Assembly: GCA_039189765.1 (NCBI GenBank)
Contig: JBCCYL010000009.1
Span: 54,984 to 118,983 of the forward strand
Direction: 5' to 3'
Length of the DNA stretch: 64,000 bases
Source: Cyanobacteria bacterium P01_F01_bin.150
Lineage (GTDB): Bacteria > Cyanobacteriota > Cyanobacteriia > CAKZMO01
Translations under genes and position numbers: made by a program
Notes under the pieces: generated by a model
The model's input: only the letters and a program-made list of their open reading frames with translations
Database searches by the model: none
Told to the model about the DNA's origin: nothing
Shown: positions 46,340 through 54,728 of the stretch, one piece after another
How positions within the stretch are numbered: the stretch's first letter is position 1
How the letters are laid out: every line of letters starts with the position of its first letter

Positions 46340-48511
46340 GTGCCTAGCCAAATAAGGACATCCTCTCAGTCGTCACGATATCGAATACTCGGCTTAGTTG
46401 GCCAGGGGCAGTTTGGCCAGGTATTTTGTGCTATGCATCGACGGACAGGTAAGCTTTTTGCTCTCAAAAATTTGGAACATGAGCGTTTCCCTACCCATCA
46501 GTTTCTACGAGAGTTACGGTTTCTCCTAAGTCTCCAGCATCCTAATATCGTTACTTGCCACGCCATTGAACATACGCAAACGGGGCGGTATCTAGTGATG
46601 GACTATTGCGAAGGGGGAACCTTGCGTGGCCTGATGGTGGATGATGTAGCGTTGTCCCTCGCCCAATGTATTCAGATTGTTGCTGATGTCTTATGTGGAT
46701 TAGCGAGTGCTCATCAACAGGGTATTGTTCATTGTGATATCAAGCCTGAAAATATTTTGCTGACGTTGCAAGCAAAGGGTTGGAGCGCAAAAATTTCAGA
46801 TTTTGGGATTGCCCGCCTTAATAAAGAGGTCTACAGTCAAAATACAGGTAATACAGGTTCACCCGCCTATATGGCTCCAGAACGTTTTTATAGTCAATAT
46901 TCCGCAGCTTCGGACATTTATGCTGTGGGAGTATTGCTGTTTGAGCTGTTGGTGGGACGTCGTCCTTTTTCTGGTCCGCCCAAAGCGTTAATGAAAGCTC
47001 ATTTAAATCAGCCAGTTGTATGCCCTGATGAAATTCCGGCGGGATTACAAGGTGTGATTGGTATGGCTCTGCAAAAGTTGCCCGCTCGTCGCTTTCAGTC
47101 TGCGCTGGAAATGCTGAATGCGATGTTATCTGTTGTGAGTAGAATGGATGGCGTATTGGCAAAGGCGATGTCTATTGAGGTGCCGTTACTAACGCTACGA
47201 CAGGGTATTCCCTATTACGACAGCGAATCGCAAAGGGAGGATGATTCTAAATATGCGGCCAAAAATCTGCATGGATTATCTTTGTTGTCTTCAGAGGCCG
47301 TTGACCTTTCTTTTATTGGATACACGAGTTCGACAACTTTTACTTATCGTGGCATTACCGCCATCGGTTCTGAAGATGGAAATGACCATAGGAATAACAA
47401 TGCCAACAACGGTTTGAATGCAGTCAAGGGTAATGATAATAATGGTCCTACATACGATGTAGTGACGTTAAAGTCAGTTCTGACAGACGCGACATATAGG
47501 CATCGGACGTTTGTGGCAAAGGACCACAATTTAGGATGGCGATCGCTTCAACTACCAGACCCTATCCAACAGCTATTACCAGCCCCTCAAGGTTACTTCT
47601 TGGCCACTTGCAACACCATTTATTGGGTTAATCCTGCGGATTTGCCTTTCTCAGAGCCAGATTCCGGTGCAGCGTCTCCGCTATCGGATGCAGGCTCCCT
47701 TACGGCTCACCCCATTTATAAATTAGACCAAGACTGTATTGCAGCCATTGAGCCAGAAGGACATTGGGTTGCCCTCATTACTGATTTGCGTAATGGTAAG
47801 CGGAAAAAGGGTGACGCAAGTACCCTTAGCTTCCATCCACTCCCTCGTCGTGCTGGCAGGATGGCGTTGCCTAAAGCTTCTGCCCGATTGAGGGTTGCAG
47901 GACGATCAAAGCAGCTTTTACAGGCGATCGCCCTCAATATCCGTCATGTGGCGATTATTTCAGATGGCCCCCATCCCAAAGCTCAGCAGGTTAAATTCAA
48001 ACAGGCTAAATCACAACAAATTTCTGCGAACCAACCTGCATCGGAAATAATTAATCCCCGTCCCCTTTATCCTAGTACGATGAGTCGAGCCACCTACATT
48101 GAGGTGTTTACCCGGCGAGGGCAGCGTATTGCTTTGCGGTATTTACCAATGTGTTTAGGGACCGTTATTACTACGCCCAAGCCCTATCGGATTTTGGCGA
48201 CGGATCGCTATGACCCCACATCGATACTATGTATTGACCTTAAGCCGTTCCGTATTCAGCGATTTGTTCTTGATATTAAGCCGCAGTTTCTTGCTGCGAC
48301 GGACTGGGGCTACATTGCAGCGGATGTAACAGGAAACATTGTTTTCCTAGACACGAATGGTTTTGCTGTTAGCGCATTACATGGTCCAGCAAATCTAACG
48401 GCCATGGCATTTTTAGCTCCCAAATGGTTGTTTCTGTCCACCTGGAATGATGGTGCAGGTTGTCTACACACCTTAGACCTCAAACAGCAAATAACCCATT
48501 GGATCTTTTGA
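46340..48511 (+). CDS. Hanks-type Ser/Thr protein kinase (SpkG-like)
   Basis: GQGQFGQV, ALK, HCDIKPEN, DFG, GSPAYMAPE, DIYAVG. Confidence 0.9.
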   Translation: MPSQIRTSSQSSRYRILGLVGQGQFGQVFCAMHRRTGKLFALKNLEHERFPTHQFLRELRFLLSLQHPNIVTCHAIEHTQTGRYLVMDYCEGGTLRGLMVDDVALSLAQCIQIVADVLCGLASAHQQGIVHCDIKPENILLTLQAKGWSAKISDFGIARLNKEVYSQNTGNTGSPAYMAPERFYSQYSAASDIYAVGVLLFELLVGRRPFSGPPKALMKAHLNQPVVCPDEIPAGLQGVIGMALQKLPARRFQSALEMLNAMLSVVSRMDGVLAKAMSIEVPLLTLRQGIPYYDSESQREDDSKYAAKNLHGLSLLSSEAVDLSFIGYTSSTTFTYRGITAIGSEDGNDHRNNNANNGLNAVKGNDNNGPTYDVVTLKSVLTDATYRHRTFVAKDHNLGWRSLQLPDPIQQLLPAPQGYFLATCNTIYWVNPADLPFSEPDSGAASPLSDAGSLTAHPIYKLDQDCIAAIEPEGHWVALITDLRNGKRKKGDASTLSFHPLPRRAGRMALPKASARLRVAGRSKQLLQAIALNIRHVAIISDGPHPKAQQVKFKQAKSQQISANQPASEIINPRPLYPSTMSRATYIEVFTRRGQRIALRYLPMCLGTVITTPKPYRILATDRYDPTSILCIDLKPFRIQRFVLDIKPQFLAATDWGYIAADVTGNIVFLDTNGFAVSALHGPANLTAMAFLAPKWLFLSTWNDGAGCLHTLDLKQQITHWIF

Positions 48512-48851: not shown

Positions 48852-49403
48852 CTACTTGCTAGCAAAGCCCTTTGCTGTACTCTCGACTTCGCTTCCAGCC
48901 TGATACACTTTCTCAAGACGCATTACCTTCCGAGAAGGATTGGAAAGGGCGCTAGAGTCAAGAATATTTGCAAGGATCGCATCAAAGGAGAACAAACCAG
49001 CACCATTGACTGCAAAGAACAAGAAAATACTAGCATAAACAGCAGACAGCTCTAGATAAGCAAGACTTAAACCTGCCACTTTGACATGATGGTACATCGC
49101 TACACACATGGTGCCAAATAAAGCAAATGCCGCAGGTCGAGTAAAAAGACCAAAGGCGACAAGAGGAGCACCAATTAGCTCAGTGTAAGCAGCCATGTAA
49201 CTTAAAGTAACGGGGAAGGGTAGTCCAAGGAAAGCCACATATGCCTGGGCAAAGCTTTCAATATCAGCAAGCTTATCCAGCCCGTTGTGAATCATCATGA
49301 TGCCGACAACAGCACGAACAATGGCCCAAGCAGTTTGCGAGGCCACATTGGAATTAACATTAGGTACTAATACGCGAGCAAGGAGAGAAATCATATCCTT
49401 CAC
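48852..49403 (-). CDS. DoxX family membrane protein
   Basis: RAVVGIMMIHNGLDKL, ELIGA, GLFTRPAA, GAGLFSFD. Confidence 0.9.
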   Translation of the reverse strand: MKDMISLLARVLVPNVNSNVASQTAWAIVRAVVGIMMIHNGLDKLADIESFAQAYVAFLGLPFPVTLSYMAAYTELIGAPLVAFGLFTRPAAFALFGTMCVAMYHHVKVAGLSLAYLELSAVYASIFLFFAVNGAGLFSFDAILANILDSSALSNPSRKVMRLEKVYQAGSEVESTAKGFASK

Positions 49404-49857: not shown

Positions 49858-51588
49858 CTATTTTGATGTATGCTTAATGGCCCTGAGAAAGTAGCAGCTT
49901 GGTCCATCGTTTGGTTGAAGATGTAAGCAGTGCTCGAACAGTTTTGTTGCGACTTGCCATTCTTGATTTCTATACGCATTTAGCCCCGATTGAAAGCGAT
50001 CGCCCAATTCCAACTGCTGATCCGACACCGTGCCCACATATCCCAGCGGTTCATAGATACGAATTGGCTGGTCGTGTCCTGGCACAACAATTTGGTTAAT
50101 TTCCCGGCAAACAATGTTGTCTTGCACCAATTTATAGGTCGCTTCAGCCATAAGAATTTGTGTACCGTACTGTTTATTCGCACCTTCTAAATGCTCGGCT
50201 AGCTGTACAGTCGGCCCAATAACGGTGTAAGACTTGGATTTATCTGAGCCAATGTTTCCAGAGACCACTTCCCCTGTTGCCAACCCGATCCGAATGGCAA
50301 TTTGGGGTAATCCTTTGCGAATGCCCATAATGTCCGGTAGTAGGCGCTGGAGTTTAGCTAACTGATTGAACTGCTCCATGGCAGCGTAACAGGCCCAAAG
50401 AGCATGTTCGGTTTCTCCCACGAAAGGTGGCCCCCAAAAAGCGCTCACAGCATCTCCAATAAATTGATTGATAACGCCTTGATGCTCTTTAATCGGTGCA
50501 GAGGCGAGGGTGAGATATTCATTAATCACCGTTACCAATCCTGATGGTGTTAGCAATTCGCTAATGGTGCTAAATCCTGCAATATCCGAAAAGAACACTG
50601 TCATCACTTGTTTTTGACCCTGCTGGATCCCTTCTTGTGGGTCTCCTTTTGCTTGCTCCTGGACTAACGTTTCAACGATGCGAGGATCAACATATTGGCC
50701 AAATGTTGCTTTGAGTCTTTCCTTCTCCCGAATATCTGCCACCATTGCATTGAAAGATGCAGTGAGAGTGCCAATTTCGTCATTAGAGAGAATAGATAAC
50801 GTTACATCTAACTCCCCTTGTTCTACTGACTGACTGCTAGTCACCAATTGTCGAACGGGGCGAACTAAGCTAACCGTTACCAAAGAGGTAAGGACCACAC
50901 CTACTGCACTGGCCAGTCCTACAATCTGCCAGCTTTTCTTTAAAGTCTCTTTTTCATGGGCTTCCGCGTCTAGTGCGGCGATTTCAGTATACTGCCCCAG
51001 CTCTAAAAGCAGTTCTTCAATACGACGGTTAAACGTGTCCTCATAGGTTACTAACTGTTCATACAGCAAGCCCGTACTTTGTGTGTTTGGTCTACCTTCA
51101 GTTTCTGTGTTTAAGACCTCTAAAATTTTTACGCTGGAGTCGTGTAATCGTGCATGATCCTCTTCTAGCACCGTTAGCAGAGGTAAAAATTGGGCAAATT
51201 CAACCTGATTTTGAACCGTATGAGTATTGGCCAATGCCGTTTGGGTAAGGGCGATCGCCGCCTGAATTTCTTCATCAACCCAATGACCGCGCTCTTCAAA
51301 TTTAGCGAGTTCTGCCTCAATGTAGGCCGAGTCTAATGGTTCGGGACCAACGGACTCGTAGGCACGGACCATACGCTCAAAGTGAATTTCCTGTTCAAGG
51401 GCATGGACATTCACCTCGGCCACGTATTCGGTGAGAGGCGTTAAATAAACTGCAATATCAATGAGTTCGTAATTAACCAAATGAATGCGGCTGTAGTTAT
51501 AGGCCGCAGTGCCCACAAGTAATCCCAGCATGCTAGTGGCAATGGCCAAGATTTTGGTGCGAATAGAAATGGAAAGTTTAGAGAACAT
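49858..51588 (-). CDS. Class III adenylate/guanylate cyclase (TM-4HB sensor-TM-HAMP-CHD-TPR), C1-like half
   Basis: FFSDIAGFS, NQFIGDAV, YTVIGPTVQLAEHLE. Confidence 0.9.
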   Translation of the reverse strand: MFSKLSISIRTKILAIATSMLGLLVGTAAYNYSRIHLVNYELIDIAVYLTPLTEYVAEVNVHALEQEIHFERMVRAYESVGPEPLDSAYIEAELAKFEERGHWVDEEIQAAIALTQTALANTHTVQNQVEFAQFLPLLTVLEEDHARLHDSSVKILEVLNTETEGRPNTQSTGLLYEQLVTYEDTFNRRIEELLLELGQYTEIAALDAEAHEKETLKKSWQIVGLASAVGVVLTSLVTVSLVRPVRQLVTSSQSVEQGELDVTLSILSNDEIGTLTASFNAMVADIREKERLKATFGQYVDPRIVETLVQEQAKGDPQEGIQQGQKQVMTVFFSDIAGFSTISELLTPSGLVTVINEYLTLASAPIKEHQGVINQFIGDAVSAFWGPPFVGETEHALWACYAAMEQFNQLAKLQRLLPDIMGIRKGLPQIAIRIGLATGEVVSGNIGSDKSKSYTVIGPTVQLAEHLEGANKQYGTQILMAEATYKLVQDNIVCREINQIVVPGHDQPIRIYEPLGYVGTVSDQQLELGDRFQSGLNAYRNQEWQVATKLFEHCLHLQPNDGPSCYFLRAIKHTSK

Positions 51589-51609
51589 GGATGAAATACT
51601 TGTGGGATA

Positions 51610-53535
51610 TTATTTTTTCGTTAGTTGCCAAACGCCTTCCCAGTCTTTGGCTGGAGGATTATTGCGGAAATAGGCAATGCGATCGCAATAGATTTGACTG
51701 GGGCGATCGCCCGGTATCGTTTCTAGGCATTTACAAAAATAACCGTGAGCCTCGCGCCACCGCTGTTGACGATAGGCAAGAATACCCTGATGAAAATGCT
51801 CGTATGCGGCAATCTTTTCCTGCGGCAGTGCTCCCATATGGCCCAATAGTTCAAAGATTTGCACGGGTTCATCTTTTCCGACCACCTGAATTCGGTCCAC
51901 CTCACGGGTGATCATCTGTTGGGCTACTTGGTGTTGGGTTTCGCCTGTCATCAGAATTTGCACCCCGTACTGTTTACTTGCGCCCTTGAGACGAGACGCA
52001 ATGTTCACCGTGTCCCCCATAACCGTGTAGGAGCGAGCAGTTTTAGACCCCATATTGCCGACCACTAGTGGTCCGGTGGCAATGCCGATATGCAAGTCAA
52101 GGGATGGATAAATCCGTTGGATATGCGTAGGCGATTCAGGGCTGTGGGCAGCCGTTAAGCCAGAGGAGACATTAGGCGACGAGGATGAAGAACATGACGT
52201 TGATAAAGCAGGTAGAGTCGAGTAGTAATGATTGACTAGTGTGCGTAAGGTAGATAATCGAGCCACCTGGGCCAAAGCCGCTTTGCAGGCGAGCACAGCC
52301 TGATCGCCATCTGTTGTGAACGGAGGTCCCCAAAATCCCATAATGACCGTATCGATAAATTTATCAATGACTCCACTATGGTCCGAAATGGGATCTGACA
52401 TCAGGTTGAGGTACTCATTGGTAATGCAGACAAGCGCATCCGCCGACAGGGATTGGCTAAATGAGTCAAATCCCTCCACGTCAGAAAAAAATACCGTCAT
52501 CACTTGGCGAGTTCCGTCAGTAGCAGAGTCATCCGGCATGCTCATAACATTTTGAATAATCCGGGGGTCCATATACTTGCCAAAGGTTTCCTCCAGTTGC
52601 ACTTTGTGACGCAACTCTTGTACCATGCCGTTGAATGTACGGGTTAGGGTGCGAATCTCATCACGGGTCGTGGCCGTTAGCTCAGTGTCCAAGTCTCCCT
52701 GACGTACCTGCTGGACTCGCTGATCCAGTTGATTCACTGGCTTAACCAGACGACGACTGACGATGGACGCATAAACCAGGCCAAAAATAGTCGCGATCGC
52801 GGCTGTACCCATGCTGAACAAAAGCACCTCTTGCTGATGCTGTTGCCCGGTCTGAGCCGCATCAACGGTAAACGCTTCTAACTCTAGAAATAGCTCATTT
52901 ACTTCCTGGCTAAAGGTTTCTGCTTCTTCAATCAGTTTGCTTTCCAGTAACGTCGCCTGTTGAAACTGTCCCCTTTGTAATAAGGTAAGTAGCTCTACTG
53001 CGTGATCATGAAAGCCTTGATGGTTGACTTCAATTTGATGCAGCCGTGGCAAAATCTGCTCCAGTTCCTGTTGGGTGTGACGAGATAGCACTGAGGACTG
53101 GTCCACCGTTGCTAGGGCCGTTTCGATATGGTCTATGGTGATCGCCAATTCCTGATCGACGAGCTGCCCGCGTTCCTCAAATAGGGCCAATTCCGCATTC
53201 ACCGCATCAGGATTGATTGGCGTCATAGCATACAGGGTTTGGACCCGCTCAAAATGCAGCTCCTGTTCCAGCACGTGAACGTCCACTAAAGCGACCTGTT
53301 CGGTGATGGGAATGATATATTCGGCCAGCACCACAATTTCATCTTTAACTCGGCGTAAGCGGTTAGTAGAAACCATCGCCACTAGGAGTAGCAGCCCCAG
53401 AAGACTGGTGGCCAATCCAAAAATTTTCACCCCGATGGAGAGGCCTTTAGTTTTGCCTACGGCTTCTGAGACTGCCTTTTTTGAATCCATCGTTGCGATT
53501 TTGGGAATCCTACTTTTAGATACGTTTGAGTCCAT
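51610..53535 (-). CDS. Class III adenylate/guanylate cyclase (TM-4HB sensor-TM-HAMP-CHD-TPR), C2-like half
   Basis: FFSDVEGFD, DKFIDTVI, YTVMGDTVNIASRLK, WEGVW C-terminus. Confidence 0.9.
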   Translation of the reverse strand: MDSNVSKSRIPKIATMDSKKAVSEAVGKTKGLSIGVKIFGLATSLLGLLLLVAMVSTNRLRRVKDEIVVLAEYIIPITEQVALVDVHVLEQELHFERVQTLYAMTPINPDAVNAELALFEERGQLVDQELAITIDHIETALATVDQSSVLSRHTQQELEQILPRLHQIEVNHQGFHDHAVELLTLLQRGQFQQATLLESKLIEEAETFSQEVNELFLELEAFTVDAAQTGQQHQQEVLLFSMGTAAIATIFGLVYASIVSRRLVKPVNQLDQRVQQVRQGDLDTELTATTRDEIRTLTRTFNGMVQELRHKVQLEETFGKYMDPRIIQNVMSMPDDSATDGTRQVMTVFFSDVEGFDSFSQSLSADALVCITNEYLNLMSDPISDHSGVIDKFIDTVIMGFWGPPFTTDGDQAVLACKAALAQVARLSTLRTLVNHYYSTLPALSTSCSSSSSPNVSSGLTAAHSPESPTHIQRIYPSLDLHIGIATGPLVVGNMGSKTARSYTVMGDTVNIASRLKGASKQYGVQILMTGETQHQVAQQMITREVDRIQVVGKDEPVQIFELLGHMGALPQEKIAAYEHFHQGILAYRQQRWREAHGYFCKCLETIPGDRPSQIYCDRIAYFRNNPPAKDWEGVWQLTKK

Positions 53536-53634
53536 CGGCACAACCCAAAGTCATAAATGGGACGATTTCAGGCTACCCACCTTCGTCCAGTTCGTCCCAT
53601 CTAGCATCAAAACGTAGTAATTCTCGTGTAAATA

Positions 53635-54134: not shown

Positions 54135-54416
54135 CTACTTTAGAGGACTATGGGTGGCTAAGATTTTCTCCACTCTCGCTTCTTCTACCTTGGCAGAAAT
54201 AGAGTTCGCTTCATGCATATCGCGAGTGGTCTTGGAAACGCTAATGGTTGAACTGACCGTGAAGGCAAAACTTAAAGCCATATAGCCCTTTGCCCATCCG
54301 TCCATGGGCAAATACAAAATGCCCCAGGTGGTTGAGAGAAGGGCAACGATAAAGGAAATCCAAGATTGTGCAATCCATGCTGCGCTGTGCTTTTGGTTAT
54401 TGGAAATACGAGCCAT
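54135..54416 (-). CDS. YiaA/YiaB family inner-membrane protein
   Basis: AWIAQSWISF, GILYLPMDGWAKGY, SKTTRDMHE; AAGGAG RBS. Confidence 0.85.
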   Translation of the reverse strand: MARISNNQKHSAAWIAQSWISFIVALLSTTWGILYLPMDGWAKGYMALSFAFTVSSTISVSKTTRDMHEANSISAKVEEARVEKILATHSPLK

Positions 54417-54728
54417 GGGGTCATCTCCTTTAGATGTGATGGTTATGATGGTTGTAATGCTTGTGATAGCGAAAGCGATACTTGTTTCGCTGTTATTTGT
54501 ATTCTCCACGGCCTCCCCCTGAATCCTCAATGAGTGGTCCAAAGCTGACCGCACTGCAAAAGGGCGCTGGGCTTTGAGGCGAAGGTCCGTTCATTGCCCC
54601 GAACTCGATCGAACTAATCCGAAGTAAGGGTTGTCGCAGTGGAAGAAGTGTCCTGTGGAAAAGTGCGATCGCCTCCTAAAACGGTTATCTTAAGGAGTGG
54701 CTTTTCCTTGGTAAGACAATTTGGCACC

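Follow-up and report, generated by a model that had tools for sequence, protein, structure and literature searches.

Two adjacent paralogous genes, A and B, occupy positions 49858-53535 on the minus strand of a 64,000-nucleotide stretch of Cyanobacteria bacterium P01_F01_bin.150 (assembly GCA_039189765.1, contig JBCCYL010000009.1, positions 54,984 to 118,983; this whole stretch is referred to as the window), and each encodes a membrane protein with a class III cyclase domain that has lost part of its catalytic residues. Based on the comparisons in this work, we propose, with a probability of about 0.8, that A and B together constitute an obligate heterodimeric, membrane-bound class III receptor adenylate cyclase with a single composite active site. 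The pattern of kept and lost residues, its conservation throughout the clade, the adjacency of the two genes and their co-divergence are what the comparisons show.

The first-pass annotation of the window had described two adjacent, co-oriented paralogues lying 21 bp apart, and the open reading frames (ORFs), the spacer sequence and a BLASTP alignment of A with B over the whole length (38% identity over 604 columns, E 9e-140) bear this description out. The gene order on the minus strand is A upstream and B downstream, as follows:

51610-53535, minus strand: gene A (P0001), 641 amino acids (aa) from the ATG at 53535 (ORF and translation)
53541 and 53490, minus strand: alternative starts of gene A, a GTG at 53541 and Met16 at 53490, the latter being the start of the public gene call P0003
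51589-51609, minus strand: spacer from the A stop to the B start, 21 bp (sequence checked)
49858-51588, minus strand: gene B (P0002), 576 aa (ORF and translation)

Reciprocal losses in the two catalytic domains

Class III active sites are formed at the dimer interface, where one protomer provides the two metal-binding Asp and the phosphate-binding Arg, and the other provides the substrate-specifying Lys/Thr, the transition-state Asn/Arg and the phosphate-binding Lys. For placing each residue of A and B on the metal-binding or the substrate-binding half, we follow the mammalian C1/C2 and Spirulina CyaC structures. The catalytic positions were read from the alignment to Pseudomonas aeruginosa CyaB (3r5g; idKfvGD and yTiiGreVNlasR), which is the nearest solved domain for both proteins (E 6.5e-27 for A and 3.7e-30 for B), together with the family alignment, and they are distributed as follows:

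50584-50586 (B D335), minus strand: first metal Asp (D1); D352 in A
52360-52362 (A K392) and 50464-50466 (B Q375), minus strand: base Lys position
A D395 and B G378, minus strand: residue before the second metal Asp
52348-52353 (A D395-T396) and 50452-50457 (B G378-D379), minus strand: second metal Asp (D2) position, T396 in A and D379 in B
52090-52092 (A H482) and 50290-50292 (B R433), minus strand: phosphate Arg position ('iRiG')
A T504 and B T455, minus strand: base Thr
52003-52005 (A N511) and 50203-50205 (B Q462), minus strand: transition-state Asn position
51991-51993 (A R515) and 50191-50193 (B H466), minus strand: transition-state Arg position
51874-51876 (A K554) and 50074-50076 (B H505), minus strand: phosphate Lys position (VVGK)

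The motifs of A are FFSD (D352), DKFIDT (K392, D395 and T396) and YTVMGDTVNIASR (T504, N511 and R515), and those of B are FFSD (D335), NQFIGD (Q375, G378 and D379) and YTVIGPTVQLAEH (T455, Q462 and H466); over the nine positions A reads D K (D)T H T N R K and B reads D Q (G)D R T Q H H. The translations confirm both halves of what had been noticed at first, namely that B keeps both metal Asp and lacks the substrate Lys and the transition-state Asn/Arg, and that A keeps Lys, Thr, Asn and Arg and lacks the second metal Asp. Two further positions, those of the phosphate Arg and the VVGK Lys, obey the same reciprocal rule. Neither A nor B possesses the full catalytic set by itself, and the set is complete only across both proteins. 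At the second substrate-specifying position both proteins carry Thr (T504 in A and T455 in B) and not Asp, which places them in class IIIb, the class that Linder and Schultz are said to have defined by a Lys/Thr substrate pair; because of this Lys/Thr pair, the expected product is cyclic AMP (cAMP).

The source genome (10.6 Mb in 350 contigs) holds 22 Pfam cyclase-domain matches. Among the 20 cyclase-domain ORFs found there with the family profile, A and B are the only ones without D2 or without the Asn/Arg pair, and they are adjacent. The other well-aligned cyclase ORFs keep both Asp and the Arg, and the Asn is kept in all but one; single deviations were seen in C227 (Asn to Asp) and C96 (Lys to Asp), and C70 aligned too poorly to be read.

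Conservation, adjacency and ancestry of the pair

The homologue sample consisted of the best 120 of 319 matches to A and the best 120 of 1488 matches to B, merged into 219 different proteins, apart from the shorter gene call of A, and placed in one alignment. These proteins separate into 76 A-type, 97 B-type and 46 canonical members with nothing intermediate, and no homologue among the 219 sampled has lost both halves. The counts at each position are:

First metal Asp: kept in 57/76 A-type and lost in 19/76; both metal Asp present in 97/97 B-type
Second metal Asp: A-type 0/76 (Thr 68, Pro 4, Ser 4); B-type 97/97; canonical 46/46
Phosphate Arg: A-type 16/76; B-type 95/97; canonical 46/46
Base Lys: A-type 72/76 (4 alignment gaps); B-type 56/97 (Gln 39); canonical 46/46
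Base Thr: A-type 75/76; B-type 92/97; canonical 46/46
Transition-state Asn: A-type 76/76; B-type 0/97; canonical 46/46
Transition-state Arg: A-type 76/76; B-type 8/97; canonical 46/46
VVGK Lys: A-type 72/76; B-type 8/97; canonical 45/46

The phosphate Arg and VVGK Lys columns were not used to define the groups, and both agree with them. The expectation that homologues would keep a complementary and not a random pattern of loss has thus held in the 76 A-type and 97 B-type proteins as well as in the two extra columns, and the split is not random decay. In the B-type, at least eight different residues occur at the transition-state Asn/Arg positions, a variety that resembles drift more than the fixing of a substitute catalytic residue. 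The median identity of the cyclase domain among orthologues is 0.58 for A and 0.66 for B. By the names of the sources, the pair family occurs in many filamentous marine cyanobacteria, Tectomicrobia, Latescibacteria and Desulfobacterales, and the canonical sister clade in Thiobacillus, Bradyrhizobium, Verrucomicrobia, Nitrospira and others.

The adjacency of the two genes was followed at 17 A-type loci (the source genome, G002, L001-L006, and L084-L093 minus the too-short L090). At 14 of them a family partner is directly adjacent, and the remaining three (L006, L089 and L092) are uninformative, the 5′ end of A being cut by the contig edge and the visible side having no partner. None of the 17 loci has an A-type gene that lacks a partner while both of its flanks can be read. 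A complete or classifiable B adjoins A at 12 of the 17, in the order A then B at seven and B then A at five. In the source genome and G002, B directly follows A; in L003, L004 and L005 a complete B follows 3-55 bp away; and L085 and L086, which come from a metagenome scan with the A-type signature that returned the ten loci L084-L093, have the same order. In L001 and L002 the family member behind A is truncated by the contig end. In the five loci of the opposite order (L084, L087, L088, L091 and L093), B lies upstream, A downstream, and the ORFs overlap; A of this subfamily lacks both metal Asp (G-K-G-T-T-N-R), yet it adjoins a D..GD partner. The protein cluster P0121, related to this subfamily, has 140 member sequences.

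The canonical clade served as a control. A contig scan with the A-type alignment uses motifs that are common to the canonical clade, and 73 of its 79 listed loci were canonical. Of these, 72 carry a single gene, which at four loci is broken into two ORFs, and the remaining locus carries a tandem; the family ORFs at all 73 keep the full D-K-GD-T-N-R set. Among the cyanobacterial reference genomes, matches at E 1e-60 were obtained in two of 401 sampled (G000 and G002), with three candidates scored per genome; the A/B pair is therefore rare or patchy among them, or some copies were missed by the scan. Co-divergence was measured on 28 further A/B pairs, whose distances are correlated with a Mantel r of 0.958 that none of 2000 permutations reached. 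Identity within these pairs is 34-47%, which gives no sign of gene conversion. A fused A-B protein was not present among the 10 longer proteins found, which all have other architectures, and this is weak evidence of absence.

The grouping is also recovered by phylogeny. In a whole-protein FastTree of 212 full-length rows each group forms one side of a branch (support 100 starred for B, 96 starred for canonical and 100 starred for A), and a tree from the sensor, transmembrane (TM) and HAMP columns, without the cyclase columns, gives the same three groups (B 98 starred, A 94, canonical 87). In a quick IQ-TREE with six outgroup cyclases, A and B are sisters (92, unstarred) inside a paraphyletic canonical group (96 starred). 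This nesting fits one duplication followed by reciprocal loss, through which a canonical homodimeric ancestor would have given rise to the A/B pair, and because the rooted tree nests the split in the bacterial canonical clade, the bacterial split would be independent of the eukaryotic one. A tandem of two canonical members was seen once among the 73 listed canonical loci, in a Bryobacteraceae metagenome-assembled genome (L017:1071-4586), and may illustrate the arrangement that preceded the reciprocal loss.

With these patterns at hand, two other explanations could be weighed. First, A and B could be ordinary paralogous cyclases with different sensors, whose homodimers are still active through non-canonical residues, namely Asp395 in A, and the Gln and His that replace Asn and Arg in B. 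D395 does directly precede T396 in A of the window, and an Asp stands before the D2 position in 25 of the 76 A-type proteins. Yet the other 51 have Gly, Arg or Asn there, 19 of the 76 have lost the first metal Asp too, A of the B-then-A subfamily possesses neither Asp, and the B-type residues at the Asn/Arg positions are too varied, as described above, to point to a common replacement. The metal substitution by the Asp of the IDT motif, which had been named in advance as a way to refute the heterodimer idea, is thus unlikely as a general mechanism. In the engineered Rv1625c system, single mutants of the same two kinds are inactive alone (PMC4821796). The explanation by active homodimers, which leaves the strict adjacency and the absence of double-loss members unexplained, is in our judgement quite improbable.

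Second, both proteins could be dead pseudo-enzymes, working as receptors or scaffolds, or as modulators of other cyclases in mixed dimers, with the complementarity being incidental. Eukaryotes do have degenerate cyclase domains that act as regulators, and about 20 further cyclase-domain proteins encoded in the genome are possible partners. However, dead domains are not expected to keep exact complementary halves, and here Asn and Arg are kept in every A-type and both Asp in every B-type protein, double losses are missing from the homologue sample, and the conserved unit is the A/B pair. Moreover, the family profile search found no further member of the A/B receptor family in the source genome, where A and B score 280 and 310 bits and the next cyclase ORF 170 bits. 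We consider this explanation very improbable, and return to the composite-site heterodimer.

Receptor architecture, dimer model and locus

The two proteins had been predicted to share the plan TM, periplasmic helical sensor, TM, HAMP, cyclase and TPR. The greater part of this plan stands, with HAMP and cyclase domains recognised by Pfam, two hydrophobic segments and, in the model of B, a helical sensor; the TPR part found sub-threshold matches only. The mapped features are:

53245-53286, minus strand: sensor helix-1 motif of A, VDVHVLEQELHFER (translation)
52609-52761, minus strand: HAMP domain of A, residues 259-309 (Pfam)
51865-52503, minus strand: cyclase domain of A, residues 345-557 (Pfam and alignment)
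52120-52227, minus strand: Ser-rich low-complexity insert of A, YYSTLPALSTSCSSSSSPNVSSGL..., residues 437-472, about 36 residues within the cyclase domain
51613-51660, minus strand: C-terminal tail of A, NPPAKDWEGVWQLTKK (translation and alignments)
51373-51414, minus strand: sensor helix-1 motif of B, VNVHALEQEIHFER (translation)
50068-50619, minus strand: cyclase domain of B, residues 324-507 (Pfam and alignment)
49864-50022, minus strand: C-terminal TPR-like helices of B, residues 523-575 (AlphaFold2; sub-threshold TPR_2 in homologues)

The Pfam family Guanylate_cyc (PF00211) matches A with 50.6 bits and B with 59.9 bits (cut-off 21.9), and HAMP (PF00672), placed after the second TM segment, matches with 54.5 and 47.6 bits, respectively (cut-off 25). 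About 180 residues separate the two hydrophobic segments in each protein. The AlphaFold2 model of B (mean predicted local distance difference test, pLDDT, 77.5) shows, from N to C terminus, four long helices between the TM segments, the HAMP domain, a low-confidence linker, the cyclase fold and three C-terminal helices (523-540, 544-557 and 562-575; pLDDT 94-97). For the sensor domain no Pfam family could be assigned: 4HB_MCP_1/TarH matches were sub-threshold and in homologues only (14-16 bits against cut-offs of 25-27), and PF26769, precomputed for some homologues, was absent from the Pfam copy scanned. As for the tail, Pfam gave no TPR match in A or B themselves at E 0.01, and the best match, in the canonical homologue P0083, reached 26.7 bits against a cut-off of 27; the TPR label, which draws on such sub-threshold homologue matches and on the three modelled helices, is the weaker point of the predicted plan.

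The sensor motif VxVHxLEQExHFER, reported at the outset for both proteins, is present in both in the translation of the window. It is nearly invariant in the A-type and B-type, and the canonical clade keeps part of it (q..h.eR). In the A-type alignment Q91 is invariant and H87, L89, E90, E92 and R97 are nearly so, and in the B-type alignment N60, L64, E65, Q66, E71 and R72 are nearly invariant; this stretch of helix 1 is a candidate ligand or metal site. The sensor domains of A and B are 36% identical to each other, and each is 48-49% conserved inside its own lineage. The first TM segment is unusually conserved, at 56-68% identity.

A further asymmetry between A and B lies at the C terminus, where the tail PPxxDWDGVWQLTKK is present in the A-type and canonical proteins, with W632, G634, W636 and K641 invariant in the A-type, and is deleted from all B-type proteins. 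The Ser-rich insert of A falls, by alignment to the B model, in the loop after a long helix, and most A-type homologues are 580-590 aa long and do not have it.

The heterodimer was modelled from A 312-641 and B 290-576 with ATP and two Mg, using 32-row alignments, in three runs alongside three controls. The interaction prediction score from aligned errors (ipSAE) was 0.82 in all three runs, and 0.00 in the best control; in the calibration, the mark was reached by 116 of 157 solved complexes and by two of 215 mismatched pairs. The runs share at least 82% of their contacts, with a partner pLDDT of 85. The confident contacts, among them A392-B377, A504-B378, A506-B378 and A510-B378, would place the substrate and transition-state strand of A (K392, T504 and N511) against the G378-D379 metal-Asp strand of B. 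Because class III dimers have already been solved, this result expresses only likeness to known dimers.

The 21-bp spacer contains no terminator-like site, so that A and B are presumably co-transcribed; the promoter and terminator scans performed no better than on shuffled sequences. The named neighbours of the pair in the window are the following, and together with unnamed ORFs they give no functional hint:

46340-48511, plus strand: Ser/Thr protein kinase, 723 aa, with a long C-terminal extension
48852-49403, minus strand: DoxX membrane protein
54135-54554, minus strand: YiaAB two-helix protein

A conserved neighbour gene beside the A/B pair was found at none of 14 loci, the other clusters there being antisense shadow ORFs.

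Proposed mechanism and comparison with known systems

According to the proposed mechanism, B would supply D335, D379 and R433 and A would supply K392, T504, N511, R515 and K554, so that the A/B dimer would hold exactly one complete site, converting ATP to cAMP. The second pocket, made of D352, T396 and H482 of A together with Q375, T455, Q462, H466 and H505 of B, would be degenerate. An A/A dimer would be without a metal ligand and a B/B dimer without the transition-state residues, and each protein alone would be inactive or nearly so. Both the periplasmic four-helix sensor and the HAMP, through which the signal would enter, would likewise be heterodimeric. From the pattern we infer that A and B are co-transcribed and pair in the cell, that neither homodimer is active, and that the product is cAMP. 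The first-pass annotation had reasoned that the reciprocal losses leave one competent and one degenerate site in a heterodimer, and the comparative tests agree with this, as the clade-wide pattern, the adjacency, the single-gene canonical sister clade and the model all point the same way. Its further ideas, an allosteric role for the degenerate pocket and a two-receptor AND-gate for cAMP, would go beyond these comparisons.

Several points weigh against this proposal. A biochemical or genetic test of the A/B family was not found in the literature searched, and the sequencing-run search returned no RNA runs carrying the locus, which bears on expression and co-transcription; the one run that did contain the stretch is marine metagenome DNA and may be where this DNA came from. 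The homologue sample is the top of two match lists, and rarer exceptions may exist beyond it. The 28 co-diverging pairings were inferred from contigs of equal size and not from visible adjacency. The sister placement of A and B, with its unstarred support of 92, comes from a quick tree with long outgroup branches and is tentative. The structural model, made for the heterodimer only, resembles solved complexes and cannot separate heterodimers from homodimers. Asp395 of A, beside the lost ligand, could in principle reach the metal. Finally, the B-type still keeps Lys in 56 and Thr in 92 of the 97 proteins; the degenerate pocket therefore does not drift freely, and it may serve some function.

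An extended form of the proposal carries the asymmetry through the whole receptor: the two sensors would form one asymmetric or two distinct ligand sites above a heterodimeric HAMP that relays the signal to the single live site, the dead pocket would serve as an allosteric site for a nucleotide or small molecule, two inputs would be integrated, and the C1/C2 design would be convergent, reached independently and repeatedly in bacteria, where the pair would represent a widespread and as yet undescribed class of receptors that are heterodimeric by nature. The allosteric pocket is put forward because B-type proteins retain the Thr and, in part, the Lys as just counted, and most A-type proteins retain D1. 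Forskolin is an allosteric regulator of mammalian adenylyl cyclases. This extended form is speculative, and we regard it as rather unlikely in its entirety.

In relation to known systems, bacterial class III enzymes are described as homodimers and the complementary pseudo-heterodimer as the eukaryotic form (PMC4821796, 2016; PMC9552081, 2022), and many heterodimeric class III cyclases, membrane adenylyl cyclases (ACs) for example, are described as completing their site only by heterodimerisation (PMC8815786). No naturally heterodimeric class III cyclase from bacteria turned up in the full-text literature search; subscription journals are largely uncovered by it, and an earlier description is possible. 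The gcyB/gcyC genes of R. centenum were considered as a published two-subunit bacterial cyclase and set aside, as the available text calls them putative or non-catalytic subunits and mentions no cyclase-domain heterodimer, and the word 'heterodimer' was not found in the short text available of the actinobacterial cyclase survey PMC2447327. An experimental precedent is the engineered pair of Rv1625c mutants D300A and R376A, which show no activity singly but restore it together (Guo et al. 2001, cited in PMC4821796). There, as in A and B, one protomer lacks the second metal Asp, the other lacks the transition-state Arg, and the two rebuild one site. However, the Rv1625c pair was made in the laboratory from a single gene, whereas A and B are natural, fixed in paralogues and conserved across clades.

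The canonical sister clade has the same architecture at 31-44% identity, with the sensor motif kept in part and the C-terminal tail kept. Unlike the pair family, it carries the full D-K-GD-T-N-R set in 46 of 46 proteins and is encoded by a single gene at 72 of 73 loci, and its proteins are presumably homodimers.

Among eukaryotic enzymes, the structures of Tesmer reportedly show that C1 contributes both Asp along with the phosphate Arg, and C2 the Lys, Asn, Arg and phosphate Lys. The C1 and C2 domains of mammalian AC1-9 thus resemble A and B in a complementary split with one active and one degenerate site, B being C1-like and A C2-like (complementary domains in PMC4821796). However, mammalian ACs are a single TM1-C1-TM2-C2 chain with two six-TM anchors, whereas A and B are two genes with two TM segments each, with a periplasmic four-helix sensor, a HAMP domain, a TPR-like tail, a Lys/Thr pair, and bacterial enzymes as their nearest structures. 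Soluble guanylyl cyclase (sGC) alpha/beta likewise consists of two gene products, which are obligately heterodimeric and have a single catalytic site beside a pseudo-site, the beta homodimer being inactive (PMC3591389); unlike A and B, sGC is soluble, regulated by haem and nitric oxide (NO) and specific for GTP, whereas A and B are membrane receptors with a Lys/Thr (ATP) pair and no H-NOX or PAS domain in Pfam. In chytrids, NeoR with RGC1 or RGC2 forms class III cyclases that are likewise obligately heterodimeric and whose genes are clustered, but RGC1 and RGC2 keep all cyclisation residues, and their obligate pairing is attributed to causes beyond the active site (PMC8815786), whereas in A and B the site itself is split.

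Two bacterial proteins outside the pair family were noted in passing. P0226 (2119 aa, Candidatus Ozemobacteraceae), from another cyclase family, carries a pair of cyclase domains on a single chain, the first with both Asp and without Asn/Arg, and the second without D1 and with K, T, N, R and K kept; a C1-like and a C2-like domain are thus fused in this bacterial protein. The other, P0229, is a CHASE2 cyclase with A-like degeneration (M-K-S-S-T-N-R-K).

A conserved two-gene split in bacteria runs against the generalisation that bacterial class III cyclases are homodimers and that the C1/C2 form is eukaryotic. It also holds a warning for annotation, as a cyclase gene that looks 'degenerate' may encode one half of a functional enzyme, and the pair could provide a small expressible model for (i) why one site with a dead pocket is favoured and (ii) how a Tar-like sensor and a HAMP domain function when heterodimeric. 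Although the principle of C1/C2 or of sGC is familiar, its occurrence in a two-gene bacterial receptor family appears to be new, and if the proposal is true, the one-active-site design would have evolved independently in bacteria through duplication and reciprocal loss.

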